DNA of 64,000 nucleotides from a virus (Duplodnaviria; Heunggongvirae; Uroviricota; Caudoviricetes), in the IMG/VR virus record IMGVR_UViG_3300042270_000314; one strand, written 5' to 3'. The position numbers and the translations under genes are program-made. The notes beneath the pieces were generated by a model. It was not told the origin of the DNA. It searched no databases and saw only the letters and a list, made by a program, of their open reading frames with translations. Below, in pieces: positions 11,059 to 57,701 of this stretch. Numbering within the stretch: position 1 is the stretch's first letter; the number at the start of each line of letters is the position of its first letter.

Positions 11059-11061
11059 TTT

Positions 11062-12879: not shown

Positions 12880-12882
12880 TGA

Positions 12883-15098: not shown

Positions 15099-18000
15099 TT
15101 ATGTGTTCATTCAAGATCAGTCTGCATTTTCAAGATAGTGATCATCATCAATGTCTGCTAGAATCCCTCATACATCCTCATCTTCTTCTTTGTTTTTAAA
15201 TAGGTCAACATCATCTTCAAAAAGTTGAGTATCAATAAGGAAACATAACCAATAAAGAGCCGAGACAAGGTCATCCCCGGTGTCTGCGCTTGAAGAAAAT
15301 TTTCCGTTTTTTTCAATGAATGTTGAAATTTGTTTAGCTGTTTCCCTATCTTTAACTATTAGTGATCCATCTTCAATGAGTTTCTTCATTGTAATAACAG
15401 CTTTTGTCTTTGATGAAGAAGTTGCTCTAATGCCAATCTCGTTTTCTTTGTTTCCTGAATTATAAAGGTTTGGGTTTTCAAAGACCCACCAAAGATTCTG
15501 TGAAACTGTGGATCCTTCAGCATTATTCTCAATACCGATAATAGCATCATTATAGTAAATTGATAATCTATTAATGATAGAAGAAAGTTCATAGGTGTCA
15601 GTAACATTGGACTGGAATGTTGCTGCATTAACTAATTTTACTGGTTTAAATGAATCTATTCTATAAATTTGTATACAAGCATCATGAGCTCCCGATCCTT
15701 TAGACGGATCAACACCGATGAGATATTTTTCTCCATCTTTTGGTTTAAGATAAACCCTAAGTCTTTCATTAAGATCCATAGCAATGGGGTCTTCTAGAGT
15801 AGTGTTAATATATCCAATGGCTTCAGTGGAAACAACGGTATTTGATGACCCAAGAAACTCGACCTCAAATTCCTGGTTGAACTTCTGTATGTTTCCCATG
15901 TTTTTAATTTGTTTTTCTTTTCATTTTTTATTTCTACCAGGTATCATGTCCCAAGTGACTTTCATATGCTTGTATTCGTTTTTACTTGTTTCAGCTCCAG
16001 AATAAATTTCATGAAAGAGATTGAATACACCATTTGGAGTAGAAATAATAATAATTTTTGCTTCATCAGAAGATGAAATTGCTGGATAGACTGAAGTATA
16101 AAATTCTCTAGCAATGTTATCTGAGACGAAGGCTAGCTCGTCGAGGAGAAGCATTGAACAATTGTGTGATATTACACCATTTGTTCAATATGATTGTGTG
16201 TCTTGTACATTCAATGCGTCGAAAACTTCTATATCATCCCATTGATATTCTTTTTCTAATACTGTTGTTTTTGGAAAAAGAATATCACCAACAATAATAT
16301 CTTTAGCTTCTTTAAAAGTAATACCATCAGACAAAAGAAATTTGTGATTATGTGTGCAATCTATAGTTTCATTGGTTGATAAATCAAATTTTATCAATGT
16401 TGATTTTCCTTGATTTATAAACCCATCAAATGGTTTAAATCCTTTGTGTGTTAATATTTCCATTACTTTCTTCCTATTGATCATCCTTCTGGTAAGTTTT
16501 TATCTTTATCATACATTTTTATTTCTTTTGTTTTTACATTATGAATTCAAATAGTATTTTTTCTGGACTCTTTCTTTTTCCCTGTTCCTTTCAATCAACC
16601 ATCTGGGATTTCATGATTTTTACTGATTTGTATAGTTTCTAATGTTAGGGGATTATATATATGAATTTTACCCTTATTTGGGGCATCCTTTCCTATTCGC
16701 GAATTTGATATACGCTTTCGAGTTACTTCACTTCTTTTCATACCCCTATGTTTTTCTGCTGTTTTTCGAATTTTTTCAGGATTTCTATTTATTTTATCAA
16801 CTCATTCATCTGATTTTTTATGACCCTTTAAAGAGTTACTTAATTTTTTATTTCTTTCTTCTGTAAATGTTTTATTATATCATGTATTATATTCTTCTAA
16901 ATTCATGTTTGTAAATTTTAAAAGTCTACTTGTAGATATATTTTTTCTATGTTCTAAAGAAAGTCTTCTTCCTCTTAATTTATTTGATAATTTTTGTCTT
17001 GTTTCTTTACTTACTGGAGGTCTATTTTTAAGAGCTTTTATTTGTTTTTCCCTATATTCATTGTTTTTTCATCTTTCTTTCGATGATATAGAAATTAACT
17101 TTTTGGCTTTTGGAGTATGTTTATAATTTCTAGATTTTTCAGAAATGAGCTTTTTTGTTTTATCAGAATGTTTTCTGCCATAAAAGCCATTTGCTTCTCC
17201 ACATAAAATACACACATTACCACCCAATGATAAATTATAGTTTGAGTTATCTTTAACAAACTCTTCATTCACAAGTTCCCTTTCCAATAATTCTGCATCT
17301 TCTTTATTATCAAACACCATTATAATTTCTCTTTTAAAATTTTCTGGTCCATATTTTTCAATAGCTCTTCTTATATATTTTCCAGACCCCAAATACCCAT
17401 CATCCAAATCATTTGTAGAATGGAACCCTATATAGTATTTCCCATTAATTAAATTTGTCGTTTTATACACCATATAATATTTTTTAGTATTTTTGAAATT
17501 CATTTCATCTCCCATAAATCTATTTATATTAGATGAAATTGCTTTTGTTTTTTCTATGGTTGTATAAAAAATATCTCCATTATCATCACACACACAAACT
17601 TTTGTATATTTGGGAACACAGGATCTCCCACGGAATGTGTCTTCAGTTGTTCCAGCAGTTTCAATTTTAGATCCATTTTCAAATTCAATGGAATTTTTGT
17701 TATATTCTATAACCCCAGGTTTTAATCAAAAAGGCAGCTCCTCATACATAATCTTAATACGTCTAAGAAGATCTTTTGCTGAACTTGCTTTATTAGATGC
17801 AATTCCGATGAATTTATCAGAATTAAAAATTGCATATCAAAGAGCAAAAGCCCCTACTGTAGTTGAATTGTGACTCTTTATACCATTAGTATAATAACAT
17901 TCCCCATCAACATCTAAACAATCATACATATTAGAAAATGTGTTTAGTTTTTCAATACTAGAAATTTCTATATCACCATTTTCTGTTTCTATAAAATTGC

Positions 18001-18568
18001 CTGCACTTAAATCTTTGACATAAATTTCTTTATTATTTGAAAATAAAATATGATTATCTGCACATATTAATTCTATACCATTTGATAATGATACTTTATA
18101 TTCATCATATTCAATAGTTTTGCCAACCCCAGAAAAATCTTTTCACCCTTCTGGGGTTCATATTTCATAATCTTCACAGAAACGCTTTTCAACAAATTTA
18201 TCATCTATATTAAAAGAAGATATTGTTAATTTATCAAAAAATTCTCCAATAGTTAGTTCTTCCTCTATTCCAGTTTTTTTGTTTCTAATTTTTATTTTTG
18301 TGTCCCAAGAAACGCACTTTCCCGATTGTCTGCAGAACAAGAAAACCAAATAACGATTGTCTTTACACATTTTAATCATTTTTTTCTGAAATGGGTAAAG
18401 AAGATCCCCTAATTTTTTCCTGCCACCATCGATAGTAACAATAGTAACAAAATTAAGAAAATACAAAACATCTTCTGAACACCTAACAAGATCTGATATC
18501 ATCTCAGGTGTATATTCATTTTCCATTCCTGGGGTCTTTACAAATTTATCATCGTATCTAATTGACAT
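15099..18568 (-). CDS. terL: large terminase subunit (T4 gp17-like) interrupted by two inteins; several in-frame TGA; frame break inside intein 2
   Basis: N-terminus LYPFQKKMIKMCKDNRYLVFLFCRQSGK then intein 1; extein STTVGAFALWYAIFNSDKFIGIASNK...LPFW*LKPGVIEYNKNSIEFENGSKIE matches the T4 gp17 region TVVAIFLAHF...[23 protein letters not shown]; after intein 2 the extein CSMLLLDELAFV (Walker B)...IIIISTPNG...nuclease domain IGVDPSKGSGAHDACIQIY...DDLVSALYWLCF. Confidence 0.8.
16161..17620 (-). mobile_element. intein 2 of terL (begins CVPKYTKVCV, ends VISHN|C): N-terminal part fused in frame to a complete GIY-YIG endonuclease with NUMOD3 repeats ending at TAA 16464-16466; blocks B and F/G follow in the -1 frame from ~16484
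   Basis: GIY-YIG YYMVYKTTNLINGKYYIGFHSTN...YLGSGKYIRRAIEKYG; NUMOD3-like GRKHSDKTKKLISEKS, GMKRSEVTRKRISNSRIG; I-TevI-like tail IPDGW*LKGTG; block B IDCTHNHKFLLSDGITFKEAKDIIVGDILF; block F/G VFDALNVQDTQSYW*TNGVISHN. Confidence 0.6.
17867..18316 (-). mobile_element. intein 1 of terL: ~150-aa mini-intein inserted in the Walker A P-loop (GK|C...SHN|S)
   Basis: CVSWDTKIKIRN (block A), GIELICADNHILF (block B), MYDCLDVDGECYYTNGIKSHN (blocks F/G) then +1 Ser; contains 2 TGA codons. Confidence 0.7.
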
Positions 18569-26299: not shown

Positions 26300-26321
26300 G
26301 GGAGCTTCGGCTCCCTTTTTT
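26300..26321 (+). terminator. rho-independent terminator GGGAGCttcgGCTCCC+T6
   Basis: Seen directly; the identical hairpin recurs at 45458-45472. Confidence 0.65.
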
Positions 26322-26353
26322 GTTTACATATTTTGAAATTTTTTCTTAAAACT

Positions 26354-26381
26354 GTTTACAAACTTTCAAAACTTTTATATT
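26354..26381 (+). promoter_or_regulatory. sigma70/T4-early-like promoter GTTTACA-N16-TATATT with conserved leader (near-identical copy on the minus strand at ~58530-58615)
   Basis: aactGTTTACAaactttcaaaacttttaTATTCTaatcttaacacaacaacaaataacccaggagatcaaaATG versus the reverse complement of 58530-58615. Confidence 0.5.
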
Positions 26382-26420
26382 CTAATCTTAACACAACAAC
26401 AAATAACCCAGGAGATCAAA

Positions 26421-35956: not shown

Positions 35957-36250
35957 TTAATAAGTTACTTTTGATCCACCAATAGTGCAATGACAAAAAG
36001 GCTTTCCTTTACTTAGACAACCTTCACAAGGATTGTCGCTTGATCCAGCTGTATAAAATTTAAACTTTGGTTGATCCTCATAAGGCGTAGGCCAATCTTT
36101 TACCCATTTAAAAGTTTTTAAAGGATTCTCAATCTCCATTGGTACATGAGGATTGTTATTTATTACTACTTTATAACATTCACATTCGTTTACATAAGGA
36201 CTTAAACACTTTCCACATTTAGGACAAATCCACCCAAGTTTCTTTTCCAT
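35957..36250 (-). CDS. Cys-rich small protein (putative Zn-binding)
   Basis: CPKCGKC...CEC...CEGC...CHC motifs. Confidence 0.4.
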   Translation of the reverse strand: MEKKLGWICPKCGKCLSPYVNECECYKVVINNNPHVPMEIENPLKTFKWVKDWPTPYEDQPKFKFYTAGSSDNPCEGCLSKGKPFCHCTIGGSKVTY

Positions 36251-37050
36251 TATATTGCTCCCATTGTAATACCATACCCTTCATAGGCATAGTTAGTATC
36301 AATTTCTTCTATTAGTCTATCCATTTCTTCTTTGCCTTCAGAAATTAATTCAGCACCATCCAAAGTTATTCCAGTATTTCCTATTGAATTATAACTTGAA
36401 AACTTTCTTCTAATTTGACCTAATGTTGTTTTTAGTTTTGCTAATGCATATTTTTTAACTCAACCTTCACTAAGTGCTTGATCTTCAAAATCTAAATAGG
36501 TTCAGCCATCAACAAAGGATCCATCATATGCCATACATCTAACTAAAAGATATCCAGCAAAATCCCATTCAGTTCCATTAATAGTTCTGACATCTTTTAA
36601 AACAGGAGTAGGACTCAAGTTAAGAATCTTTTTGTGTCTAGCATACTTAAATGTATATTGCTCAGGCATATATCTTTCTAATGTTTCAATATAATCCATA
36701 GCAAGCTGATACCCAATTAGTCCACCAGATCCCATAAACTGTTGGGGGTCAATATATCCTTGTGTGTATAAAAAATTCTCAATGGTAAAGAGAGTATTAA
36801 TACCTGTACTCCATGTGTCAGATTTGAAGCCCAGTACGTCTGTAACATATGCTGGTAGGACATATTCATATTGACCAGCAGACAGTGGCATAGTAAAATA
36901 ATATTCTTTTGTAGAATTACCTACTGCTCATTCTTCTCATTTTTCCAAAGCATCATCGATGGCATCATTTAGATGATCATCTGTGACTTCAACTTTGTTA
37001 TATGGATACCCCAAATCTCTTTTTAATCTTGCTCTTAAATCAGCTCTAGT
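36250..37050 (-). CDS. gp13: neck protein (T4 gp13-like), ~266 aa, 4 in-frame TGA
   Basis: MTRADLRARLKRDLGYPYNKVEVTDDHLNDAIDDALEKW*EEW*AVG... and C-terminus GITLDGAELISEGKEEMDRLIEEI match T4 gp13 ([38 protein letters not shown]...; [24 protein letters not shown]). Confidence 0.65.
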
Positions 37051-37129
37051 CATATTATTCCTCTAAAAAACTTTATTGTGTTTTAATTATTTATAGAAAT
37101 TTCTAATGGAGAAAAAGAGGATTTTAAGA

Positions 37130-37480
37130 AATCCTAAATTATTAAAATTATTAACTATTCGAAATCCTAAGAAAATGATGTATAAAACATTACGTTTTTC
37201 TATAGATTTTGGTGGATTTCTCGTAAGTTATTGATATTATTAGGAAAACTAAGATTTTGGTGGATTTCTAAGTTATTGAAATAATTAAGCTTCCTGGAAA
37301 CATGAAAAATCTCAAAATTTCCAGACTTTCTGATAAAAAAATATTCGAGATGTGGTATAAACTTGAATTTTCTCTATTTACAACTCCGGAGAAATATGAT
37401 AGTTAATATATTAACTTGGTACGGAGGGTATAGTATATAGAATTATATTGATTGGTGAAACAATATTTTGGTAATATGTA
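37130..37480. repeat. ~340-bp repeated intergenic module (second copy at 59395-59730, partial copy at 13740-13810): tandem ~28-bp direct repeats (TTTCAATAACTTAGAAATCCACCAAAA in minus orientation), palindrome GTTAATATATTAAC, TATA-rich core
   Basis: ~75-bp and ~65-bp blocks are identical between the copies; each copy lies 140-210 bp upstream of the first gene of a minus-strand operon (starts 37050, 59310, 13626). Confidence 0.7.
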
Positions 37481-37540
37481 CTTATGAATTTTTGATAAAT
37501 AATTTATAAACTATATTAATTTGGATGAGGTAAAAGCTAG

Positions 37541-45456: not shown

Positions 45457-45476
45457 CGGGAGCTTCGGCTCCCTTT
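45457..45476 (+). terminator. terminator hairpin GGGAGCttcgGCTCCC+TTT (identical stem-loop to 26300-26321)
   Basis: Seen directly. Confidence 0.55.
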
Positions 45477-45480
45477 CATT

Positions 45481-45972
45481 ATGACACAATTTATTAAATT
45501 TTTGAGAATGGATCTAAAGAGTGGTGATTCTAAAAGGTCCTATTTTGGAAAGGCGGCTGCTGGTGCCATTGTATATGCTAAAAAGGAAAAAGCCTTCCTA
45601 GTTCTTCAAAGACAAAAAGATACTATAGACGGATGGAAAAAAGTCAAAGAGGCAGGAACTTGAAGCATTGTTGTTTCGGGAAAAGTTGATGATTCTGATA
45701 AATGACCAAAAATAACAGCCAAAAGAGAATTTAAAGAAGAACTGCGATATAATGGCACCTTTAAAATTTCAGAAAAACCATTTGATATTTTTGAGGATGG
45801 AGATTTTACTTTTACAACCTTTATAATAACTGTGGATGAGATATTTGAACCAAAGTTAAATTGGGAACATTCAGCTTATAAATGAATTACATCTTTTAAA
45901 GATATTCCTGCGCCTATTCATTTTGGAACAAAAAGAATTTTAAAGAAGTTGCAAATCAAATACAAAATGTAA
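45481..45972 (+). CDS. NUDIX hydrolase (163 aa, 3 in-frame TGA)
   Basis: Nudix box GKVDDSDKW*PKITAKREFKEELRY fits GX5EX7REUXEEXGU; track ORF 45481..45663 extended through TGA to TAA 45970-45972. Confidence 0.6.
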
Positions 45973-46042: not shown

Positions 46043-47536
46043 TTAGAGAATTACTTCTCCAGTTTCTTCATCAATCATTTCTTCCAATATAAATTTTTTA
46101 CATAACTTTAAATTTTCTTCAAATTTATCTTCTGCTCATACAGTAAGAATTTTATAACCAGCATTAATAGCGATATTATTTTTAAAGGCGTCCCTTTCAA
46201 GTGCTTTAATATAGTCACATTCTTTGTCTCAAACATGCCTTCATTGTTCTTTTTTATCTATAGATCATGTATCTCTTACATGAGATCCATTGCCATTATA
46301 TTCTATTATAAGTTTATCAAATAATGTAAAATCAAACATAAATCTATTTTTTCTATTATTGTATGTTATACACAATTCAGAACTTTCTGGTATACCACAT
46401 TTAATATCTTTAAAATCTGCAATATTCTCTTCAAATAATCAATCTATCAATTCATAAAATAACTTTAAGGATTCTTTGGAAACCGACCTAGTATTTCCTG
46501 ATGATCTTTCACAAAACAAATTATATCTTTTTATGCCCTCATCTTCTCCATATCTATCTATAAAATTGTGTAAATTTTGTTTTGATTTTTCTCTAAATAT
46601 GGTATGTCTTCTAGTTCCTTCTTCCTTTCCATATATTCTAATCATATTATCTAATGTAGGCACACTAGACTTACTTCATCTATTATAAAAAGAAGCTCCT
46701 TCTTCCTTTCCGTATCTATTAATACAATATTTTAAAGAGCCAATGCCTTTTTTGTTACTGCAAACTTCTTTATATCTTCTAGTTCCTTCTTCCTCTCCAT
46801 ATATTCTAATCAAATTGTTTAAACCACAGCCAACTTTATTACAATATTCATTATATTTCTTTAATCCTTCTTCCTCTCCATATCTAATAATAAAGTTTTC
46901 TTTGGAATTTTTAGCAGAATTTACTCATTCATTGTATCTTCTAGTTCCTTCTTCCTCTCCATGCTTTGATATATATTCTTCTAATGTAAGATGTGATTTT
47001 GATCATTCATTGTATCTTCTAGTTCCTTCTTCCTCTCCATGCTTATAAATAAATTTTTCTTTAGATAAAGATTTTGATAAACAATATTCGTCATATTTCT
47101 TTAATCCTTCTTCTTCCCCGTGTCGTTTTATAAAATTTTGTTTATTATTTTTTGTTTTATTAACTCATTCATTGTATCTTCTAGTTCCTTCTTCCTCTCC
47201 ATATTTGTTGGTGAAGAATGCTAAGTCTCTACTACAACCAGCACAGATTTCATTGTATCTTCTAGTTCCTTCTTCCTCTCCATATAAAATTTTTAGTGCA
47301 TGAATACTCCTGGATTTGCCGCATTTTTCGCACAATGGTTTATATTTGCCAGAAGAACTTATAAAATATGTTTCATTTGTTTTACATAACTTACATATAC
47401 CGTCCATATTATCTACTTTAAGATTATTATCATAATAAAATTTAAAAGATATATTATGTTTTTTTGTTAAATGTGTTTTAAGTGCTTTCATAGATTTACA
47501 TTCTATATTGCATATAAGACATATTATTGACATCAA
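46043..47536 (-). CDS. homing-endonuclease-like protein: N-terminal Cys zinc fingers, ~10 tandem YGEEEGTRRYNE-type 25-28-aa repeats, C-terminal Vsr/DUF559-like nuclease motif (IIEYNGNGSHV); ~498 aa with ~9 in-frame TGA
   Basis: Track ORFs 47165..47536 and 46439..46663 share a frame; the intervening sequence is open with TGA as Trp (…YGEEEGTRRYNEW*VNKTKNN…); plus-strand ORFs 46476..46688 and 46743..47048 (SSSPY repeats) are its antisense. Confidence 0.55.
46590..47290. repeat. tandem DNA repeats (~78-85 bp period, core ctcattcattgtatcttctagttccttcttcctctccat) encoding the YGEEEGTRRYNEW protein repeats
   Basis: Near-identical 39-mers at ~46925, 47007, 47163, 47248 and degenerate copies at ~46600 and 46774. 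Confidence 0.65.
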
Positions 47537-48653: not shown

Positions 48654-49100
48654 TTAACATTTATACATATCTTCAATATTAAGATCTTCTAAATAATCTT
48701 TCATATTTTTATTTTCTAATAAATTTTTAAAAACATTAAAACATTTATCTTGTAAAAATTTCATTCTTGCTTCATGGCCATATAACATTTCTGGCATATC
48801 ATTTTCATCAAATGAAATGTAATATTCATCAACAATTTTTAAATCTTTAATATGTATAAGACCACTTAGATAAGTATATATAGCAATAATTCTTTTAGCA
48901 GAATCTAATTCACAAGAGAATCCAATAATAATATCATTTTCAAAGACAGTTAAAGTTAAATTTCCATCTAAAAGGGATATTACTTCATTTTCCTCATTAT
49001 AATAAGCAAGCTCTTTACCTAGATACTTATCATCTTTAACGATATCCCAAATTCTTTTTGTAATTTCTACATCTGATAACCCCCGCTTCCATTCATCCAT
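48654..49100 (-). CDS. hypothetical protein (148 aa)
   Basis: Track ORF. Confidence 0.4.
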   Translation of the reverse strand: MDEWKRGLSDVEITKRIWDIVKDDKYLGKELAYYNEENEVISLLDGNLTLTVFENDIIIGFSCELDSAKRIIAIYTYLSGLIHIKDLKIVDEYYISFDENDMPEMLYGHEARMKFLQDKCFNVFKNLLENKNMKDYLEDLNIEDMYKC

Positions 49101-51127
49101 TATACTTCCTCCTTAATAGAGCTATATCCATTAGATTTAATAATATTAAACCTACGATCAAATGTAAACGAACTAATTTCTTTTCTATGAGAAACAATGA
49201 ATGTAGCAAGATTGTCTTCACGTTGTTTGATAGTTACAATATTCATAAGATTTTCAATACCTTTAACATCTACAGAAGAATCCAAAATTTCATCAAGAAT
49301 AAGAATGTTTGGGAGATTTTTGCATTTTAATTTTGAAATGTCATAAAGAGCAAATTGAAGAGCCAATTCTAAAGATTTCTTTTCTCCCCCGGAAAGACTA
49401 CTGGCTGTTGCATTAGAAATTCCAGCTCCCTTGATTTCACAATCCAGCCATCCATCAAGCTTGATATAAAACCCTACGGCTGCCTCTGAGAGGTAATGGT
49501 TAGCTCTCTGGTTAATGATAGGTACTAGACTACTAATGGCATATTGCTTAATCTGGTCATCACCACAGAGCTTCTTCAGGAAGGAATAATAATCCTTCAA
49601 AAGACTAAGATTAGTATTCTTCTTTTTGAGTTCAACATTTTCACTCTTCAGAAGACTCAGTTCAGAAATAGCATTTGCTTTGTATTCTTCAAGCTTCTCA
49701 ATCTGAGCTTTTCTTTCTTCAATTCTATTTTTTTCATTTTCAATCTGAGAAAGAAGAAGATCTCTATTGTACAATGAGGCCCTTTCCTTCATTTCTTTCA
49801 ATTTTGAATTGCAATTAAATACAGTATTAGAGAATTTTTCTTTTGTTTCCTTTAGAGTCTTAATAGATTCCATAATCTCTAAATACTTACTATTTTCTTC
49901 AATTACTTTTGTTAATCTTTCAATTTCAGATTCATAATACTTATAATCCATATTAGATTTTTTAATATCATTATGCTTAGAAATAAGGAGGTTTTCCTTT
50001 TCTTCTACTTCAGTAAGCTCCTTGTTTAATCTATCTTTTTCTTTTGCTTTGTGTTCTCTAATAGATTCATTATTCATTTTAGATCCACAAATAGGACAAT
50101 TATCAAGATCTTCATATTGCCCTTTTTGTGAGACCTTTTTCAGATCTGAAAGGATGGATTCTTTCTTTACCTTATAATCGAAACACTCATCATAAAGAAG
50201 CTTTTCAAGTTCCTCATCGTAGTTTACACTAGTAAAATTCTTCTTACATTCTTCTAACTTGTCAGCAGCATTAGGGTCATAACTAATTCCCTTTAGAAGA
50301 GCATTCTTTTCTGAAAAAGCTATTTCAGCTTTATTTTTAACTACTTCAATATCTTTAATCTTTTGTTCATATTTCTCAATATCTTCTTTTGAAGGAAGAT
50401 CATCCGGGATATCGTTGAGTTGTTCCTGAAGTAACTGTAAGTGAGTATCTGAAATGTCAATACTTCGAATATCAGAAGTGTATTTTGAAACATTTATTTC
50501 TAATGAAGAAATTCTCTCTTCATTTTTCGAAACAGAAGTTTTGTTCTCTAATATTGCACTATCAATATTAGAAACTTTTTTATTAATCTTATTCTTTATA
50601 TCTGAGTATGCTTCAAGATTGAAAATGTTCTCTAGAAATTTTCTTTTCTGAGCTTTAGGAATATCAAAGATTGAAACGAAGTTATTTGGATTATAATAGA
50701 ACAAGGAAATAAAGGTTTTGTAATCAATTTTCAAAATTTCTTCTTCGAGATATTTTTGAAAATCTGTGACAGAAGCTAAAGAATCAAGTTCTTTATCGCC
50801 CTTGTAAATTTTTAGAACATTAGGTTTGATTCCTCGTTCAATCCTATATTTAATCCCATCAATAGAGAATGAAATTTCTACCAAGCATTTTTTCTTATTC
50901 TTCCAATTTACTATTTGATCTTTAGTAATATCTTTAATTGTTTTGCCAAACAATGCCCAAACAATACTTTCATTTAAACCAGATTTCCCTGCTCCATTTG
51001 ATCGTGAAGTATCCTTGTTTTGCCCTGAGATCAAAGTCAGCCCGTGGTCAATTTTAAATGTTGAAACATTAGATCCATATGATAGAAAATTCTTTATCTT
51101 GACTTCTTCTAAATGAATTATAGACAT
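49100..51127 (-). CDS. gp46: recombination endonuclease subunit gp46 (Rad50/SbcC-like ATPase)
   Basis: N-terminus KIKNFLSYGSNVSTFKIDHGLTLISGQNKDTSRSNGAGKSGL...YRIERGIKPNVLKI matches T4 gp46 (…TGRNGGGKST…YYIKRGQKPNVFEI); long coiled-coil; C-terminal LSGGEKK signature and LILDEILDS D-loop. Confidence 0.8.
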   Translation of the reverse strand: MSIIHLEEVKIKNFLSYGSNVSTFKIDHGLTLISGQNKDTSRSNGAGKSGLNESIVWALFGKTIKDITKDQIVNWKNKKKCLVEISFSIDGIKYRIERGIKPNVLKIYKGDKELDSLASVTDFQKYLEEEILKIDYKTFISLFYYNPNNFVSIFDIPKAQKRKFLENIFNLEAYSDIKNKINKKVSNIDSAILENKTSVSKNEERISSLEINVSKYTSDIRSIDISDTHLQLLQEQLNDIPDDLPSKEDIEKYEQKIKDIEVVKNKAEIAFSEKNALLKGISYDPNAADKLEECKKNFTSVNYDEELEKLLYDECFDYKVKKESILSDLKKVSQKGQYEDLDNCPICGSKMNNESIREHKAKEKDRLNKELTEVEEKENLLISKHNDIKKSNMDYKYYESEIERLTKVIEENSKYLEIMESIKTLKETKEKFSNTVFNCNSKLKEMKERASLYNRDLLLSQIENEKNRIEERKAQIEKLEEYKANAISELSLLKSENVELKKKNTNLSLLKDYYSFLKKLCGDDQIKQYAISSLVPIINQRANHYLSEAAVGFYIKLDGWLDCEIKGAGISNATASSLSGGEKKSLELALQFALYDISKLKCKNLPNILILDEILDSSVDVKGIENLMNIVTIKQREDNLATFIVSHRKEISSFTFDRRFNIIKSNGYSSIKEEV

Positions 51128-51130
51128 TTA

Positions 51131-51625
51131 TTATTCCTTAAAAAACAAATTTTCATTTACATAACGGTTTCTTAATTCCATTAAAATAAAGCCTAGATGA
51201 TTATGTTTTACTTTTACTTTTTTACATTTTTCACATTTACATACACCCCAAAAATTATCATGCCATAAGTTTCCTTCGATTAATATATAGGGGTGTGTTG
51301 CTATAAGTTTTTCTTTAATACTCTTATTATATTCAAATTTTTCATATATAATGTCTCTCATTATTTGAACTTTTACATTATTCCAATCTTCTCTTAATGT
51401 CAATTTCTTCCCTATTTCTTTGACAAGATGGGGAGTAGGGCAATCTATAATCCATTTTTTCTCTTTTGGATCAAGGGTTTTGGATGCTTGATAAGCATGT
51501 TCAGCAGTTTTCCATACAATATCATTATATAGAACAAAGGAAAAATAAAAATTACTTAGAAAGACATGTTCTCCCCTAAAAGTTTCAATACTGTTTTCAT
51601 CAAATATATTATAGATAGTAGACAT
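51131..51625 (-). CDS. NADAR (YbiA-like) domain protein
   Basis: FRGEHVFLSNFYFSF...AEHAYQASK...GNLWHDNFWG...HLGFILMELR match the NADAR/YbiA family signature. Confidence 0.65.
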   Translation of the reverse strand: MSTIYNIFDENSIETFRGEHVFLSNFYFSFVLYNDIVWKTAEHAYQASKTLDPKEKKWIIDCPTPHLVKEIGKKLTLREDWNNVKVQIMRDIIYEKFEYNKSIKEKLIATHPYILIEGNLWHDNFWGVCKCEKCKKVKVKHNHLGFILMELRNRYVNENLFFKE

Positions 51626-52025
51626 TAAAAGTTACCTCACTGTCTCCAAATACATATTTAAGTTGTTCCTTAACTGCGGGCCAAGATAACCTATCAAGCC
51701 CACAACCAATTTTAGGCATATAGACTTCTGTAATGATGTTATTTCTCATTACCTCTGCCATATTTTGGAGTGCAAAGCACATAGACTCATAAGAGGGTTT
51801 ACCGGAACTTCGTCTTTTTGTTACAATATTTAATACTGGGGAAACATAATAAGTTTTCCCTACTTCAAGAACTTCATTTCGAAGTCTTTTAATTTGTGGA
51901 TAATTTTTCACAAAATCAACCGCAATACCAGCACCCATTTCAGCATCTGCTGCAATACAATGAGCAACCACAGTATCTTTTTTAACAAAATTGAACAGGT
52001 TTCCCTGAGTTTCATTGATTATCAT
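51609..52025 (-). CDS. Macro-domain protein (ADP-ribose binding or hydrolase)
   Basis: VVAHCIAADAEMGAGIAVDF...YMPKIGCGLDRLSW match the macrodomain glycine-rich and GCG(L/I)DxL motifs. Confidence 0.6.
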   Translation of the reverse strand: MIINETQGNLFNFVKKDTVVAHCIAADAEMGAGIAVDFVKNYPQIKRLRNEVLEVGKTYYVSPVLNIVTKRRSSGKPSYESMCFALQNMAEVMRNNIITEVYMPKIGCGLDRLSWPAVKEQLKYVFGDSEVTFNVYYL

Positions 52026-52318
52026 TATTTGAATTCCTCATAGTTATACTTATATCCATTTGGAATATAATATTCTTCATGCTCATAAATGTTAACCATA
52101 CCATTATAATATGCGTTTAAGGATTTTGATGCTGAAATACAAAAAGGCGTGTCACCAAAATCCCATACAGCCTTTACAAATTTAACTTTAAAAGAATATT
52201 CATCATCCGTGGAATTGTCTTCTAATATTTCAATTTCACCAATAAGACCGGATTCTTTATATTGGTATCTTTTTCCAACCTCAACAAAATCCCAGCCACC
52301 ATTATGCCATGTTGCCAT
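52025..52318 (-). CDS. hypothetical protein (97 aa)
   Basis: Track ORF. Confidence 0.4.
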   Translation of the reverse strand: MATWHNGGWDFVEVGKRYQYKESGLIGEIEILEDNSTDDEYSFKVKFVKAVWDFGDTPFCISASKSLNAYYNGMVNIYEHEEYYIPNGYKYNYEEFK

Positions 52319-52331
52319 AATTTACACCCCC

Positions 52332-52769
52332 TTAATTTACATCACCAAATGACATATCTTTATCTTCTGAATCAATTACAATTTTTGCACCATATAAATG
52401 TTCATAGTAACCACACCAAAATGGATAAAGTTGATATTCTCTTTCTCCATCATCATGAAGTAATTTGATAGCATAATCATATCTTGAAGTTGCTTTATAA
52501 AAAGTTGCTTTAACGCAAAACTTAGGAACATTTTTTAACCATTTCTCTTCATTTACATGAGGAGGTTGGGTTGCATATGTAAACCATTCGTAATGTGCTT
52601 TGATTCTTTTTAGATTCTTTTTAGCAATATCAAGATTCTTCCATTCATACTCAAGAATAGAAGTCTCATCAGATGTTGAGAAAGAATCTCCGGCGCGATA
52701 ATAAATTTTAATTTGATAAGACATATGAACTCCAATATTAAAAGTGACTTGATAAAAATAATCTATCAA
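52332..52769 (-). CDS. hypothetical protein (145 aa)
   Basis: Track ORF. Confidence 0.4.
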   Translation of the reverse strand: MIDYFYQVTFNIGVHMSYQIKIYYRAGDSFSTSDETSILEYEWKNLDIAKKNLKRIKAHYEWFTYATQPPHVNEEKWLKNVPKFCVKATFYKATSRYDYAIKLLHDDGEREYQLYPFWCGYYEHLYGAKIVIDSEDKDMSFGDVN

Positions 52770-52797
52770 GCCACTTATCTATTGTAAATAAAATTCT

Positions 52798-53655
52798 TTA
52801 TTCTTTAATCGATAGCATCGGGGACGGCATTGTTCCTGCCATATATGTTGGCATAATTCCGTTCCACTTTTCAATTCGTTTATATTCAACAAGAGTAGCA
52901 GTAATTGAGTTAGATAGGATTTTATTTGCTTCGGCCTGTGCAAGAGCTACAAGCTTAATAGATTCTGCCTCGCCTTGTGCGGCAGCAATTTTCTTACGGG
53001 CCTCGGCTTCAGCTTCGCGGACTTGATTTTCAACCCTTTGTGCAGTCTGCGTGGCCTCAATTTTAGCGTTAAGTGCTGTAATTACGGATCCAGGAAGACG
53101 AAGATCACCAACAAAGGAAATCTGTTCAATAATAATACCAATAGGTTCAACCTTACTCTTTACAATTGATTCAACTTCATCACGAAGAGCAGCCTTACCT
53201 TCACCATAAACAAATTCAACAGGCTTATTTGAAGATGCTACGACAAAAGCATCTCGCACAATATTCCTTAGATAAATGTCAGTAATTTCTTCTACACCCT
53301 TACGATACTTCTGGAAAATATCATTAACCTTATTTGGATCAATGTGATACGCAATACCAATATCAGCATTTACAGAAAGACCTTCCTTTGTCTGAAACGT
53401 AATTGATTCATCATCAGGAGAACCTTCACGAGAATCTGCAGACCAAACATAATTCTGAGTATATGTTGGAAAAATATATAGTTCTTCATTCCAACCAATC
53501 CAATATCGTCCAACACCAAGCTCTTCAGTGTCAACCCCTTTATTTCCACCAAGAAGATAAACCTTCACACCAACATTGCCAGAAGGTACTTTGGTACAAG
53601 CTACACTTCCAAAAGTCAACACCATAAACAGAATTAGATAAACAAGATTTTTCAT
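52798..53655 (-). CDS. SPFH/band-7 (stomatin/prohibitin/HflK/C-like) lipoprotein
   Basis: Signal peptide with lipobox (…FGSVAC); central SPFH fold; C-terminal Ala/Glu-rich coiled coil (AEAEARKKIAAAQGEAESIKLVALAQAEANK). Confidence 0.6.
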   Translation of the reverse strand: MKNLVYLILFMVLTFGSVACTKVPSGNVGVKVYLLGGNKGVDTEELGVGRYWIGWNEELYIFPTYTQNYVWSADSREGSPDDESITFQTKEGLSVNADIGIAYHIDPNKVNDIFQKYRKGVEEITDIYLRNIVRDAFVVASSNKPVEFVYGEGKAALRDEVESIVKSKVEPIGIIIEQISFVGDLRLPGSVITALNAKIEATQTAQRVENQVREAEAEARKKIAAAQGEAESIKLVALAQAEANKILSNSITATLVEYKRIEKWNGIMPTYMAGTMPSPMLSIKE

Positions 53656-53658
53656 AAA

Positions 53659-53892
53659 CTACTCCTTTGATTTAAGTTTTCTAACAATAGGTAAAATCTT
53701 CTTCATAATGATAAAAGCAATCATAATTGGGGATACAGCAATTGTAAACACCCCAAGGAAAAAAAGTTCAGTGTTTGCAGCCGAAATTAGATAGGGCGCA
53801 GCATACCCAAACGAAAAAGCAAACACACACAAAAGAATAGCCCCCCATACATACAACTTAACATAGTCATTCATAATTATCCTCATTACCAA
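53659..53892 (-). CDS. small 2-TM membrane protein (possible NfeD-like partner of the SPFH protein)
   Basis: Two hydrophobic helices; immediately upstream of the SPFH gene. Confidence 0.4.
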   Translation of the reverse strand: MVMRIIMNDYVKLYVWGAILLCVFAFSFGYAAPYLISAANTELFFLGVFTIAVSPIMIAFIIMKKILPIVRKLKSKE

Positions 53893-54281
53893 TCAAAATT
53901 AAAGTTGGAATATCCATGTTCTAATACCTCTTCCTTCAATTTGTCAATATCAATATCAAGATCGTAATCTTCTACACGTTCAACCAAATTTACTAAATTA
54001 ACTGTTTCATGTCTCTCGTAGTTGAAATCGTCATAGTAGTTTATATTATTACTTTCTAATTCTTTGTAATGAATAATCCACTCAGATTTAGGAAACATAT
54101 CTTCATTGTTACGAAACATATCCCATCTCTCATTAATAGGAATGCTTTTGTTTTTAATATATACGGAAATATAATCAAAAATTTCTTTCTGCTTTAATTT
54201 TAACTTTTTAATTTCCTCGTAGAGTTCATCAATGTTATCAATGGTCATTCTAGATTTCCCTCCATCGCCATTTATTAGCAA
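53886..54281 (-). CDS. hypothetical protein (131 aa)
   Basis: Track ORF. Confidence 0.4.
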   Translation of the reverse strand: MLINGDGGKSRMTIDNIDELYEEIKKLKLKQKEIFDYISVYIKNKSIPINERWDMFRNNEDMFPKSEWIIHYKELESNNINYYDDFNYERHETVNLVNLVERVEDYDLDIDIDKLKEEVLEHGYSNFNFDW

Positions 54282-54440
54282 TTTCTAAAAAGTTATCATC
54301 ATATTCATACTGGAAAGACCATTCAGGGCCATACATTTCAAACATTCTTTTTCGGGATTCATCAAAAGACCCTTCAATCACAACATAACAATTTGCGTGT
54401 TTTTGACCACAACCAAAAGTAAATGCATACTTACTCATTT

Positions 54441-54893
54441 TTACATCTCCATTACAATAGATTTCACAAGATTTCCATCTACATTGCCATTAAAGTGTTT
54501 TGTAACAACACCAATAGCTTGCATCTTATTCTTAAACTGAGAAAAGTCAACTGTTTTTAGAAAATTTCTAATTTCTTCTTCTGTTGCCATTTGAGGTAGA
54601 ATTGATTCACAAAGTTCAATAAAATCATATGCTTCTGTGAGTTTTGGATTTGGTGTGTCTAGCCCAATTCCCTGTATAGGGTTCTGAATAAGATTTGGGA
54701 TAGTTACTTCCTTAACAGATTTAACAATATTCTTGATAATCTTAATAGCTTCTTCGTCAGTAACAGTTTTTTCTTTGTTCTTGGATGCTGTCTGAAACTG
54801 GCCAATTAGGAATTTAATATTATCCTTACGAATTGAATTACCAGCCTTTAGAGCCTCAATCATAGCTTTCTGTAGTTGTTCCTGAATTGTCAT
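54441..54893 (-). CDS. GatB/YqeY-domain protein
   Basis: MTIQEQLQKAMIEALKAGNSIRKDNIKFLIGQ...EEEIRNFLKT...AIGVVTKHFNGNVDGNLVKSIVMEM matches the YqeY family pattern. Confidence 0.5.
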   Translation of the reverse strand: MTIQEQLQKAMIEALKAGNSIRKDNIKFLIGQFQTASKNKEKTVTDEEAIKIIKNIVKSVKEVTIPNLIQNPIQGIGLDTPNPKLTEAYDFIELCESILPQMATEEEIRNFLKTVDFSQFKNKMQAIGVVTKHFNGNVDGNLVKSIVMEM

Positions 54894-55156
54894 TTTACTT
54901 TTCCACCTTTTTATAAATGTTTAAAAACTCTTTAATTTCCATTGTTTCATTTTGAAACATTCTATGTTTTCCTAAAGGATGCATAGCATATAAAACCCAT
55001 CCATCTTTCACATCTTTAATTGTTACAAATCTATATTCGTCTACAAAGAAAGGATTTCCATCACCATATGACAAATAAAATAAATCATCTTTCTTAATAA
55101 ACGGATCAGAAGTTTGTTTTGTTTTAAAAATCTTCTTTAAAAAATGTAAACATCTA

Positions 55157-55408
55157 TCAACTCCAATTAAAAATACAATTTAGAAGTGATTGTTTTTCTT
55201 CAAAATAAGGACATTTGTTTAATAGATTGTCGGAATATGGATTACAATATCTTGGTGTTGTTATAACTTCGAGAGGAGTATCTCTCTGTTTATATTCTTT
55301 TATCCTTTTACATCTAGCTTCAGCCATTCGAGGTCCATCTACCGGAATCCAATCAATATATCGGCAATCTTTACAGAAGACTTTCATTACCACCACCAAC
55401 TTTGCCAA
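55157..55408 (-). CDS. Cys-rich small protein (83 aa)
   Basis: Track ORF with several CxxC pairs. Confidence 0.35.
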   Translation of the reverse strand: MAKLVVVMKVFCKDCRYIDWIPVDGPRMAEARCKRIKEYKQRDTPLEVITTPRYCNPYSDNLLNKCPYFEEKQSLLNCIFNWS

Positions 55409-55920
55409 TACTTGTTAATGTAATTTAAAAGCATATTCATATCTTCTTTCTTATGTTGTTCAACAAGTTTATGTATATTCAAAAATTGTTGGGTTTCAAT
55501 TTTTTCATCTTCAGGAGTCTTTACATTTTCTCGATGTGTTTTAAAAAATCCGTTTTCTACAGAACAATCGAGGGTTCCCCATTTCTTATCATGAAACATA
55601 AATCCATTTTCATGATACCACCAATCATCTTTCTGTCTTCTACAAATTTCTTTACAAATTTTTAATCTTTTAATGTGTTTTTCACAACCACAAACATACT
55701 TGCTTCCTCTCTTGAATGATTCAATCATCAAATCAAATTTCTTTTCCCAAATAGGAAACATATACGAATAATCCCAGCTTCTATCTTTCCAGATAATAGG
55801 GAACCAAATGATAAGATTTTTAATACCATATTTGATATCATAATAGAAGTTCTGGATTTTCTTCCAAATCCACACAATATCATCAATCTTATCTTCTAAA
55901 AATTCTTTCATGCTATTCAC
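55387..55920 (-). CDS. hypothetical protein (177 aa, Trp-rich)
   Basis: Track ORF. Confidence 0.4.
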   Translation of the reverse strand: MNSMKEFLEDKIDDIVWIWKKIQNFYYDIKYGIKNLIIWFPIIWKDRSWDYSYMFPIWEKKFDLMIESFKRGSKYVCGCEKHIKRLKICKEICRRQKDDWWYHENGFMFHDKKWGTLDCSVENGFFKTHRENVKTPEDEKIETQQFLNIHKLVEQHKKEDMNMLLNYINKYWQSWWW

Positions 55921-55922
55921 CT

Positions 55923-56330
55923 TTATAGAAGGATATTATCAAAAATATCTTCAAGATCAGCAAAACGATATTTAATTATTTGATCGTTTTTAATAACCAC
56001 ATCAGCTAGGGACAGTAGTCTATAATAAGAAGTCGATGATACAACATCACTACGTTTATGATTAAGCCATATTTCTTCATCAATATAAAATGTAATTCTA
56101 TTCCATAACTGCTCACTAGGTTTATAAAATTTTTTACTAATTTTAATATACTTGTTTTTATTTTTGTTGGGATTCAATTTCATACTTTTGTTTTCTTTAA
56201 TAAGCTCATTATTATGTTCTCTTAAATGATTAATAAGATCAACTATTTGAGTTGTTTTCAGTGAGGTGATAGACTTTGATAGAAACAAATCTGTGTATTC
56301 TTTAATTAAATCAAGGTCTGGATAAGACAT
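55923..56330 (-). CDS. hypothetical protein (135 aa)
   Basis: Track ORF. Confidence 0.4.
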   Translation of the reverse strand: MSYPDLDLIKEYTDLFLSKSITSLKTTQIVDLINHLREHNNELIKENKSMKLNPNKNKNKYIKISKKFYKPSEQLWNRITFYIDEEIWLNHKRSDVVSSTSYYRLLSLADVVIKNDQIIKYRFADLEDIFDNILL

Positions 56331-56346
56331 AATAATCCCCCTGTTT

Positions 56347-56568
56347 TTATCGTTCCAGAATTACAAAATGACCAAAATGACTATCAAACACAGTAACTAG
56401 ATGTTCATAATCACCATTCATCATATCACTAATCAGTTCTTCGATTTCTTCTTTTGAATATGAAAGATGTTTAGCAAAACTTTTTGCATAACCTAATAGG
56501 CAAAAGGCATTACCTTCAGGACCAGTCAAATCAATAATCATTTCTTTGTTCTGTTTTTCTCTGATCAT
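56347..56568 (-). CDS. hypothetical protein (start moved to the internal Met because the track start overlaps tRNA-Met)
   Basis: Track ORF 56347..56619 overlaps the tRNA at 56590-56663. Confidence 0.35.
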   Translation of the reverse strand: MIREKQNKEMIIDLTGPEGNAFCLLGYAKSFAKHLSYSKEEIEELISDMMNGDYEHLVTVFDSHFGHFVILER

Positions 56569-56589
56569 AATGTTTTCCTTTGAAGATTG

Positions 56590-56663
56590 TACCCCTACCA
56601 AGATTTGAACTTGGGACATTCCGGTTATGAGCCGGGGGTTCTAACCAACTGAACTATAGGGGT
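56590..56663 (-). tRNA. tRNA-Met (anticodon CAU; elongator or Ile2-type)
   Basis: ACCCCTATAGTTCAGTTGGTTAGAAC...CCGGCTCATAACCGG...GTTCAAATCTTGGTAGGGGTA; A1-U72 paired, so not an initiator. Confidence 0.65.
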
Positions 56664-56666
56664 AAA

Positions 56667-56744
56667 TGGTGACCCTGACAAGAATCGAACTTGTGACATC
56701 GAACTTAGAAGGATCGTACTCTATTCCAACTGAGTTACAGGGCC
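56667..56744 (-). tRNA. tRNA-Arg (anticodon UCU), CCA encoded
   Basis: GGCCCTGTAACTCAGTTGGAATAGAGT...CGATCCTTCTAAGTTCG...ACAAGTTCGATTCTTGTCAGGGTCACCA; one U-U mismatch in the anticodon stem. Confidence 0.55.
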
Positions 56745-56750
56745 ATGTTG

Positions 56751-57107
56751 TTAATAAGTTAATTTTAATTTAGGTTTAACCTTTTGTAAATAAAAATCTT
56801 TTATAGATTGATTCTTAATTGTTTCAGGCCAAAACCAAATATCAAATCCATATTTTTCAATTTGTGTAATGACTCTTGAAACGTGTTTGGCACTTAATGA
56901 ATCATTACCTTTTTTCCAAGGAATTTCAAAGTCAGTAATTAAACTATAGTCAACTCTACCAAAGTCATTAATATACCAAACATCAAATGTTTTAGATGTA
57001 TCAGACAAATCTCTAAAAGTTAAAAAATATAATAGCTTTTTATCTCTAAAAACAAGGAAGACGGAATTTAGAGTAAAAAGACCGTCTTCCTTGTCAACTT
57101 TAAACAT
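56751..57107 (-). CDS. hypothetical protein (start moved to MFKVDKED..., avoiding the overlap)
   Basis: The track ORF 56751..57296 N-terminus overlaps the better-looking ORF 57100..57483 in another frame. Confidence 0.35.
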   Translation of the reverse strand: MFKVDKEDGLFTLNSVFLVFRDKKLLYFLTFRDLSDTSKTFDVWYINDFGRVDYSLITDFEIPWKKGNDSLSAKHVSRVITQIEKYGFDIWFWPETIKNQSIKDFYLQKVKPKLKLTY

Positions 57108-57483
57108 CGAGAGGTACTTCCTTATAGATAACATACTTATGGGTAAAATTATTGAGCTTATAAAACTTCTTTGCGCGTTTACAAAACTTAACAAATTGTT
57201 TTTCAAGAGAAGATGGAATAGGCATCTTCGAACCAAATTCATAATCAAAAGGCCTTTCAGCGGCAATAGACACTGCATCATCCTTTGTAAATACATCTTT
57301 CTTATTACAAAGACTCCAACCTACTATAATCTTGCATTCTCCATTAAGATCGCAAAATGTTTTTGCATAGAGACACCCATAAGGAGTTCCCTTTTCTCTA
57401 TAAGGAGTAGCAATTCCCTCTTCATCATAATCAAATCCAACAATTCTACCCTTTTTACGAACATATTCAATAAGATGTGACAT
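57100..57483 (-). CDS. hypothetical protein (127 aa)
   Basis: Track ORF. Confidence 0.4.
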   Translation of the reverse strand: MSHLIEYVRKKGRIVGFDYDEEGIATPYREKGTPYGCLYAKTFCDLNGECKIIVGWSLCNKKDVFTKDDAVSIAAERPFDYEFGSKMPIPSSLEKQFVKFCKRAKKFYKLNNFTHKYVIYKEVPLDV

Positions 57484-57484
57484 T

Positions 57485-57676
57485 TTAAACTCCTTCTGTA
57501 TATTGTTTGAATAATTCTTTTTCTAATTTGTGAATTTCATATTGTAAACACCTAAATTTAGTTAATTCTTGTTCATGTTCAATCTCCCTGATAAGGTTAA
57601 TGTATTTTATTTTAAGAGAAAGATTGGGAGAGCTGGATTCTTCCAGGGCAGATTCAAGGTCTGCTATGACGTCCAT
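57485..57676 (-). CDS. hypothetical small coiled-coil protein (63 aa)
   Basis: Track ORF. Confidence 0.35.
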   Translation of the reverse strand: MDVIADLESALEESSSPNLSLKIKYINLIREIEHEQELTKFRCLQYEIHKLEKELFKQYTEGV

Positions 57677-57701
57677 ACGTTCATCTCTCCCAAAATTTTA
57701 T

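Follow-up and report, generated by a model that had tools for sequence, protein, structure and literature searches.

Results

A repeated intergenic cassette in a divergent T4-like phage

The window, by which we mean the whole 64,000-nucleotide stretch of DNA that was analysed, comes from a very divergent T4-like myovirus with a GC content of 30%. Its gp23-type capsid protein is at most 38% identical to that of any deposited phage, and a megablast comparison of the region with deposited phages returned no match. The gene set is nevertheless recognizably T4-like and includes a gp24-like paralogue, portal, sheath, the gp46/gp47 nuclease, the gp55 late sigma factor and NrdD/NrdG, along with 10 tRNAs. 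The contigs that carry relatives of the capsid protein are short, and their bins are Izimaplasma and Bacteroidia MAGs.

The gene map was patchy at first and became dense once TGA was taken as a sense codon. When orthologous genes were compared, TGA was aligned to TGG 13 times and to TGA 12 times, and we therefore read it as tryptophan. The early gene blocks are the exception to this usage: in-frame TGA is absent from 10004-13611 and 48654-59310 while the structural genes contain many.

A non-coding cassette of ~340 bp (ranging up to 420 bp) is repeated at least five times in this phage. Two full copies lie at 37130-37465 and 59390-59723, and they share two exact runs, one of 71 bp (37217-37287 = 59477-59547) and one of 66 bp (37400-37465 = 59658-59723); an earlier sequence-only reading had put these identical blocks at ~75 and ~65 bp. 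The third copy, which that reading placed at 13.74-13.81 kb and called partial, is indeed partial but larger, extending over ~13620-13912 and carrying three boxes and a GTTTACA promoter. The 24-mer GGTGGATTTCTAAGTTATTGAAAT occurs three times in the window at one mismatch or fewer, and none is expected (100 shuffles).

With TGA read as sense, the copies occupy the intergenic gaps 37054-37540, 59311-59794 and 13612-14629, and none of the three falls inside a coding region. The left edge of the cassette is ~10-80 bp from the first minus-strand gene and the tandem boxes are ~120-240 bp from it. Each copy stands before the first gene of a leftward block, as had been proposed, but the 37-kb copy sits between two late operons and heads no early operon. 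Below the 59-kb copy the gene order is gene of unknown function-HTH-DUF932…NADAR…gp46, and an insertion of 8.7 kb, with this copy at its head, separates gp47 from gp46. The block below the 13-kb copy reads Acb3/Tad3/NrdG/NrdD. PDB sequence searches with the 91-aa HTH neighbor (58602-58877) and the 122-aa protein (58942-59310) gave nothing useful.

The features of the 37-kb copy are as follows.

37400-37465, no strand: 66-bp block, identical to 59658-59723; holds the P_R -10, the 16-bp palindrome, a CCCTCC/GGAGGG element and P_L; kept in related lineages
37376-37405, plus: P_R (predicted), ATTTACA (-35), 17-nt spacer of variable sequence, TAGTTA (-10)
37401-37416, no strand: AT palindrome AGTTAATATATTAACT, 16 bp; weak hairpin, z = -2.45; symmetry kept but sequence different in L134, L159 and L161
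37432-37459, minus: P_L (predicted), TTCACC-N16-TATACT; converges on P_R
37294-37324, minus: stem-loop CTGGAAA…TTTCCAG, -11.9 kcal/mol, z = -2.1; the sister phage retains only part of it
37268-37287, minus: box B TAATTATTTCAATAACTTAG, followed by the conserved tail AAATCCACCAAAATCTTAGTTTTCC
37223-37242, minus: box A TAATAATATCAATAACTTAC, 45 bp from box B
37134-37153, minus: box 0 TAATAATTTTAATAATTTAG, 89 bp from box A
37088-37095, minus: T4-type late promoter TATAAATA (predicted); separates the cassette from the head-tail adaptor gene 36250-37053

Those of the 59-kb copy and of the 13-kb copy are listed below.

59741-59772, minus: intrinsic terminator with a U-run after the stem-loop (-16 kcal/mol, z = -8.3); belongs to the gp47 (SbcD-like) gene upstream; conserved in four lineages
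59658-59723, no strand: 66-bp block with P_L at 59717-59690 (minus), the palindrome at 59659-59674 and the P_R -10 at 59658-59663
59634-59640, plus: P_R -35 GTTTACA (predicted)
59553-59584, minus: stem-loop CCGGAAA…TTTCCGG, -10 kcal/mol, z = -1.9
59528-59547, minus: box B
59483-59502, minus: box A
59394-59413, minus: box 0
59350-59379, minus: P_0 (predicted early promoter), GTGTACT-N17-TATTCT; directly 5' of gene 58942-59310
13883-13924, plus: P_R of the 13-kb copy, GTTTACA-N17-TAAATT, with late promoter TATAAATA (predicted)
13840-13868, minus: leftward early promoter (13-kb P_L, predicted), GTTTACA-N16-TATAAT; 5' of boxes B, A and 0; conserved in L005
13775-13794, minus: box B
13730-13749, minus: box A, 45 bp from box B
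13620-13639, minus: box 0; its 3' end enters the Shine-Dalgarno AGGAG of gene 12883-13611, as it does in L005 and L150

Common layout and predicted promoters

Relatives of the cassette were retrieved by pattern, protein and exact-protein look-ups, and the common layout was read from multi-lineage alignments, one of them an unbiased alignment of six lineages. Followed in the direction of the downstream genes, a copy (or module) begins with the terminator of the upstream gene, then P_L, a CCCTCC pyrimidine run and the AT palindrome. The antisense promoter P_R comes next, with its -10 inside the palindrome and a GTTTACA -35, and is succeeded by ~86 bp of variable sequence. Box B follows, box A lies 45 bp further on and box 0 another ~89-110 bp away; the module ends with P_0, a Shine-Dalgarno sequence and the first early gene. 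P_0 is present in the 59-kb, L001 and L006 types. In the 37-kb type a weak hairpin comes after box 0, ahead of the predicted late promoter of the adaptor gene, and the gene to the right of this copy is preceded by a near-consensus ATAAATA. In the 13-kb type a back-to-back pair of GTTTACA promoters replaces the usual arrangement, and its P_R faces a conserved non-coding RNA of ~600 nt at 13953-14557.

Two classes of candidate promoter were distinguished in this phage. Early-class sequences (GTTTACA-N17-TAnnnT, usually after a T-run) are intergenic and co-oriented, 5' of tRNA clusters and of TGA-free or early genes, and they match the T4/PST early consensus TTTACW-N17-TAYWAT (PMC4122927). The late class is distinct: it consists of TATAAATA, the T4 late motif, in the correct orientation 5' of head, neck, tail and other late genes. 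The predicted P_0, P_L and P_R all fit the phage's own early consensus, which is of the kind that host polymerase recognizes in its unmodified state, as it does in T4.

The -35 of P_R (GTTTACA; GTAAACA in the alignment columns) was invariant in all six lineages, its -10 varied (TAGTTA, TATTTA, TAGTTC), and its spacer was always 17 nt long with a variable sequence. Several lineages have a TGn extended -10. For P_0, the T.TAC columns of the -35 were invariant in six lineages, with a 17-nt spacer of variable sequence and a TATTCT-like -10; this -10 and the leader resemble those of the early promoters at 58594 and 26354. In the sister phage P_L reads GTTTACC-N17-TAATCT.

The GTTTACA/ATTTACA -35 noted earlier upstream of the leftward operons is present, 17 bp 5' of TAGTTA. 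However, it is on the plus strand, and the predicted promoter formed with the palindrome would fire away from those operons. The leftward genes would be served instead by P_0 (59379-59350), P_L (37459-37432 and 59717-59690) and the promoter at 13868-13840, all predicted. Two features count against an early-promoter region. The TAGTTA -10 of P_R is without the usual final T, and the predicted starts of P_R and P_L are oddly placed, face to face and only ~10 bp apart. The terminator at 59741-59772 could also end P_R transcripts. A TATAAT-like sequence between boxes A and 0, GTGTATAA(A/T), was rejected as a core promoter: three copies have it in the opposite orientation, and L159 and L161 lack it.

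Three boxes with an invariant skeleton

The tandem units reported from the sequence-only reading, …ATCAATAACTTACGAGAAATCCACCAAAA and …TTTCAATAACTTAGAAATCCACCAAAA on the minus strand, were found as described in the 37-kb copy, but the tail of the first unit differs in the 59-kb copy. What all three 20-bp boxes have in common, in every lineage of the unbiased six-lineage alignment, is the skeleton AAT.A....A.....TTA. A profile built from 32 distinct boxes reads tAATnA-WWty-A-r-nn-a-s-TTA-k-r-a, in which positions 5, 13 and 14 are unconstrained.

The spacing of the boxes is conserved to different degrees. Box A follows box B by 45 bp in every one of the 14 modules compared, which represent at least five lineages, although the tail between them has diverged. 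The distance from P_R to box B is 85-88 bp in 8 of 11 modules, that from A to 0 varies between 89 and 110 bp, and box 0 is 9 to 39 bp from P_0. Box orientation is that of the downstream gene, with the exception of the inverted box 0 of L006. The variable distance between box 0 and P_0, together with this inversion, makes for a poor fit to a strict activator geometry. The invariant skeleton and the fixed 45-bp spacing support the suggestion that the boxes are an iterated motif of the kind expected of binding sites.

Among 241 million metagenome records, box B with its tail was confined to this clade, and the remaining matches were coding. A looser scan with AAGTTATTGAWATNNTTA gave more than 120 loci. 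Their flanks show 3-nt periodicity and the free positions follow background composition, so we regard most of them as chance matches in coding DNA and reject the idea of a widespread phage motif. Similar AT-rich boxes were seen in non-coding DNA of a few unrelated phages (L083/L112, L063 and L058). A literature search with the box sequence returned only unrelated primers and barcodes.

By-eye comparison showed that none of the DnaA box, the NrdR box, CodY, Fur, sigma-54, NtcA/TyrR or Ter sites fits the boxes; the DnaA box in particular is contradicted by variation at the 'CCnCC' position. The boxes do resemble IHF sites. The box reads TAATnAT-W-TCAA-NNNN-TTA, to be compared with the IHF consensus WATCARNNNNTTR and its AT-rich 5' flank; variation between lineages falls mostly on its N4 and R positions, and several A boxes are perfect. 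On the other hand, only 10 of 43 boxes match WATCARNNNNTTR perfectly (24 of 43 with one position relaxed), and the consensus C is present in only about half of the distinct boxes. Perfect matches number only 10 in the whole window on both strands. The host may have no IHF, and a search of ~187 kb of clade DNA for HU/IHF homologues turned up no such gene. We take the similarity of the box sequences to IHF sites as a lead, not as membership.

Palindrome, hairpins and tests for coding or RNA function

The perfect 14-bp palindrome GTTAATATATTAAC of the earlier reading is exact and widens to the 16-bp AGTTAATATATTAACT in both full copies (37401-37416 and 59659-59674). Its counterparts are AGTTATATTATAACT in L134, TATTTAAATA in L159 and CTTAATATGTATTAAG in L161; the symmetry is kept and the sequence is not, which argues against a sequence-specific operator.

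The stem-loop 3' of the variable segment is weak and occurs in some lineages only. Between the 37-kb form (CTGGAAA…TTTCCAG) and the 59-kb form (CCGGAAA…TTTCCGG) there is one compensatory pair. A strong terminator-type stem-loop lies 5' of P_L in the 59-kb copy while the 37-kb and 13-kb copies have no convincing one; in L003 and L007, hairpins precede the promoters.

We considered whether the cassette might encode a peptide. A small open reading frame over boxes B and A (peptides such as NYFNNLEI…) is open in most copies, yet it is not coding. Differences are spread evenly over its codon positions (19, 20 and 21), 5 are synonymous and 29 non-synonymous, L159 and L158 have an in-frame TAG, and the copies share no consistent start codon or Shine-Dalgarno sequence. 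A short frame after GGAGGG on the P_R transcript was likewise rejected, as it is not conserved among the window, L134, L135 and L157.

At the RNA level, only tRNAs reached gathering scores when the window was scanned with Rfam 15, and RNAalifold gave no covariation-supported helix on the module. The long-range helix that it did propose is contradicted by L006. A hairpin formed by the box RNA was also rejected because the variable positions break its predicted pairs without compensation.

Relatives and concerted evolution of the cassette

Cassettes related to those of the window were found in several contexts. Among contigs of the same project, the L001/L002 module is flanked by the gp41 helicase gene on one side and by a DnaJ-like/dCMP-deaminase operon on the other. 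L006/L008, from the same project, has the left half of the module only; it heads a run of small, early, TGA-free genes. L003/L004 and L007 are single-box loci, and in L003 and L007 the order is essentially box, stem-loop, TTTACA promoter, Shine-Dalgarno sequence and start codon. In a 165-kb sister contig each of the three window copies has a counterpart at the orthologous site, and there is also a copy of the L006 type (labelled L134/L146, L135/L151, L150 and L148). This contig gives four matches to box B with its tail; the 64-kb window has three copies of the module. L005 is a third variant of the 13-kb locus, and the 59-kb locus recurs in three to four more distant lineages (L152/L157, L159/L160/L158, L161, L153 and L154). 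Four of the five module types head early, mostly TGA-free blocks.

In the conserved blocks, a copy resembles the other copies of its own genome more closely than it does its orthologues: copies from one genome are identical at 66 of 67 and 49 of 50 positions, orthologues at 52-53 of 67 and 46-47 of 50. This points to gene conversion between dispersed copies. The variable segments of the cassette, in contrast, follow orthology. Old syntenic copies homogenized in this way fit the data better than the earlier suggestion that a cassette has been copied around the genome.

L158 and L159 are collinear, with 92% identity, in the stretch that starts at the module's outer edge. Beyond the module their arms differ, with gp47 in one and the DnaJ-like/dCMP-deaminase arm of the L001 type in the other. 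This junction falls exactly at the module edge; genome arms have thus been swapped at a module. The relative orientation of large segments also differs between the window and the sister contig. The recombinant junction lends support to a role as a boundary element, which had been offered as an alternative to an operator/promoter cassette; that latter idea was largely right. All copies are intergenic, and the cassette is non-coding, multi-copy and, by prediction, promoter-bearing.

Discussion

Best reading and its rivals

The cassette is probably, if by no means certainly, a multi-copy divergent early-promoter region of a T4-like phage, with predicted promoters and phased binding sites for a DNA-binding factor. 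In the best-supported reading it also acts as a recombination handle. Right after infection, host RNA polymerase would fire divergently from P_R and P_0, and also from P_L. A sequence-specific and probably DNA-bending protein would assemble on the three boxes in a fixed geometry between the divergent promoters; this protein, of host or phage origin, might tune how strongly early genes are transcribed, or silence them. Recombination between the dispersed copies would homogenize them and, as has been proposed for PeSL cassettes, could allow whole early or anti-defence blocks to be exchanged. Against the early-control part of this reading, neither the 37-kb copy nor its orthologue L135 has an early gene under it.

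It could be speculated that the modules are instead origins of the T4 oriE type, and this is the main rival, albeit an unlikely one. DNA synthesis would be primed by early transcripts, an initiator or accessory protein would use the boxes as iterons, and the homologous copies would answer to the multiple origins that a T4-like genome has. In T4, oriE relies on an early promoter and contains direct repeats at even intervals, and origins tend to sit where transcription switches strand (PMC3016281). The modules have direct repeats at fixed spacing and AT-rich variable segments, and there are four to five modules per ~165-kb genome. The 37-kb and L001 copies lie at divergent transcription, the L001 copy abuts the replicative helicase gene, and an origin would account for the retention of a full copy at 37 kb, in late-gene surroundings with no early gene to serve. 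However, no initiator gene is associated with the modules, the 59-kb, 13-kb and L006 copies are not at divergent transcription, and the T4 iterons are 12 nt long, closely packed and of unproven role even in T4 (PMC3016281). GC skew in the window merely tracks the direction of transcription, and nothing in the sequence would tell an origin apart from a cluster of promoters.

Wherever the cassette lies, its boxes would also be transcribed in the sense orientation, which leaves room for a role at the RNA level. They might act within a long leader made from P_L or the upstream genes, through processing, antitermination (nut/put-like) or translational repression, and would couple or uncouple expression of the downstream early block. 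We find this quite doubtful. With few exceptions the boxes do point the way transcription runs, the box of L003 and L007 has a stop codon on one side and a terminator hairpin on the other, box 0 touches or overlaps the Shine-Dalgarno sequence at the 13-kb locus of the window and in two orthologues, and the 5' CCCTCC is complementary to Shine-Dalgarno sequences. The searches for conserved secondary structure described above speak against it, as does the inverted box 0 of L006, and P_0 lies 3' of all boxes, so its transcripts would be without them. A further alternative dispenses with a regulator altogether: the cassette would be a large PeSL-like promoter/terminator repeat kept mainly by recombination, and the boxes only AT-rich upstream DNA. 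Concerted evolution, the recombinant junction at a module edge, the opposite orientation of segments in the window and the sister contig, and the precedent of the PeSL cassettes (see below) are all in keeping with such a repeat. We nevertheless consider it very improbable, because gene conversion cannot give an invariant skeleton and an exact 45-bp spacing at ~60% regional identity, and because copies remain at orthologous sites. Finally, the cassettes might be homologous nucleoprotein hubs, each with three phased sites for a phage or host protein placed between divergent early promoters, that combine an origin with an early-transcription switch, with recombination between them moving TGA-free early and anti-defence blocks; we hold this combination to be rather improbable.

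Comparison with known systems

Closest in kind to the cassette are the T4-type PeSL promoter/stem-loop cassettes, of which we consider it an enlarged variant or relative. The PeSL cassettes of T4-type phages were reportedly treated by Arbiol and colleagues in 2010. A PeSL (promoter-early stem-loop) is a dispersed intergenic unit of T4-type phages that joins a terminator-type stem-loop to a sigma70-type early promoter (Comeau et al. 2014, PMC4122927). Both kinds of cassette head variable early gene blocks, and for both there are signs that copies recombine and so shuffle gene modules; here this takes the form of indels and exchanges at the module (the L158/L159 junction, the 8.7-kb insert between gp47 and gp46, and concerted evolution). 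P_0, the 13-kb P_L (N16) and the P_R -35 conform to the sigma70-like early promoter with 17-nt spacing, and the single-box loci L003 and L007 come near the PeSL make-up. In contrast, a PeSL is a small stem-loop with one promoter, next to a Shine-Dalgarno sequence and start codon, and is found between many genes of the hyperplastic region. The present cassette is ~340-420 bp long and has two to three predicted promoters in both orientations, its three 20-bp boxes with their fixed 45-bp spacing are not described for PeSLs, and one copy lies among late genes.

The likeness to T4 oriE consists in an early-mode promoter beside direct repeats, a position, for some copies, in or near late-gene regions of diverging transcription and the presence of several per genome. 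The differences are that T4 origins share no common sequence while the present copies are homologous, and that the 12-nt T4 iterons are evenly packed; no RepE-like gene was seen here. Face-to-face promoter switches of the P2/186 type likewise have overlapping convergent promoters and a palindrome at the start sites. In the present case, however, the palindrome sequence is unconserved, no repressor gene is evident and the phage is lytic and T4-like.

Significance for T4-like phages

The cassette provides a first, predicted map of early transcription starts in an uncultured and very divergent T4-like virus. Two of the three window copies head TGA-free early blocks (10004-13611 and 48654-59310), and one of these carries the counter-defence genes Acb3 and Tad3. 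The exactly conserved 45-bp spacing predicts a specific protein-DNA complex. If the origin reading were true, these would be the first sequence-related origins within one T4-like genome. As a larger and more structured version of the PeSL, the cassette extends the idea that regulatory cassettes may serve as recombination handles.

A segment in two orientations, and shared promoters and terminators

Within the ~340-bp intergenic cassette, the stretch between boxes A and 0 (two of its three 20-bp binding-like sites) includes a 17-nt segment, GATGTATAAAACATTACG (window 37177-37194 versus 59437-59453). The 59-kb copy of the cassette holds this segment as the exact reverse complement of the 37-kb copy. 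The orientation of the 37-kb copy was found in the cassettes of the related contigs L001 and L006, and that of the 59-kb copy in the sister phage.

A nearly identical early promoter and leader occurs at two sites outside the cassettes, and one terminator is present twice:

26354-26401, plus strand: early promoter and leader
58594-58548, minus strand: early promoter and leader
26300-26334: terminator GGGAGCTTCGGCTCCC, after the capsid gene
45458-45492: terminator GGGAGCTTCGGCTCCC, after the 41246-45451 gene

The two promoter sites have the sequence GTTTACAAACTTTCAAAA.TTTTATATTCTAATCT.AACACAACA in common, and their TATTCTAA…CTTAAC leader is also present in P_0, the predicted leftward early promoter, of the 59-kb copy. 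A GTTTACA promoter directly follows the first terminator copy.

Gene blocks beside the cassettes

The operon below the 13-kb copy (10004-12879, minus strand) carries genes for Acb3, which inhibits CBASS, and Tad3, which inhibits Thoeris; DUF5662, NrdG and NrdD come after them. In T4, gp46 and gp47 are neighbors; in the window, however, the 59-kb module and about 8.7 kb of TGA-free genes lie between them:

49100-51127: gp46 (SbcC-like)
59795-60781: gp47 (SbcD-like)

Band 7, NADAR, macro-like domain, YqeY and DUF932 genes are among those dividing the pair, and the intervening block also contains two tRNAs and encodes a small HTH protein resembling sigma region 4.

A candidate structured RNA

Near the 13-kb copy lies a non-coding region that is conserved in two other variants of this locus, L005 and L150 (the latter from the sister phage):

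13953-14557, plus strand: ~600-nt non-coding region (L005 1180-1782; L150 about 4010-4600)

It is more conserved than the flanking genes and is preceded by both an early (GTTTACA) and a late (TATAAATA) promoter. Compensatory double changes were observed in 25 of 176 predicted base pairs, in an alignment of only three sequences, and Rfam gave no match at E <= 1. The region is a candidate for a new large structured RNA.

Box-like sites in other phages and hints of the host

AT-rich boxes resembling TAATGATTTCAATAACTTA, two to five per contig, occur in non-coding DNA of unrelated phage contigs, some of higher GC:

L083 11973-12263: boxes
L112 1333-1623: boxes
L063 7270-8282: boxes
L058 230-305: boxes

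Either a host factor common to these phages or ascertainment bias may account for them. Among species-representative genomes, capsid relatives were found only on two short contigs, L155 (JRFF01000075.1) and L156 (RZYM01000133.1), one in the bin of Candidatus Izimaplasma HR2 (55% identity), the other in that of a Bacteroidia MAG (82% identity); these bins hint weakly at the host.

Large terminase and repeat-bearing ORFs

The large terminase gene (15099-18568, minus strand) appears to be interrupted. It contains a segment resembling GIY-YIG as well as intein-like junctions (…SGKC/VSW…SHN/S and …SHNC/S…), and compared with L005 it has window 16156-17624 inserted. The minus-strand ORFs 46043-47536 and 6587-7891 each enclose a run of repeats with an 81-nt period (46511-47293 and 7121-7531), and the repeats of one gene are related to those of the other.

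TGA recoding

Orthologue comparison aligned TGA with TGG 13 times, and in the window TGA serves as a sense codon for tryptophan. Structural and many other genes use it (for example 15099-47536), and two long early gene blocks (48654-59310 and 10004-13611) are without it. None of the window's 10 tRNAs is a suppressor tRNA(UCA). This usage looks like the stage-specific stop-codon recoding known from other phages; in this case the virus is T4-like.
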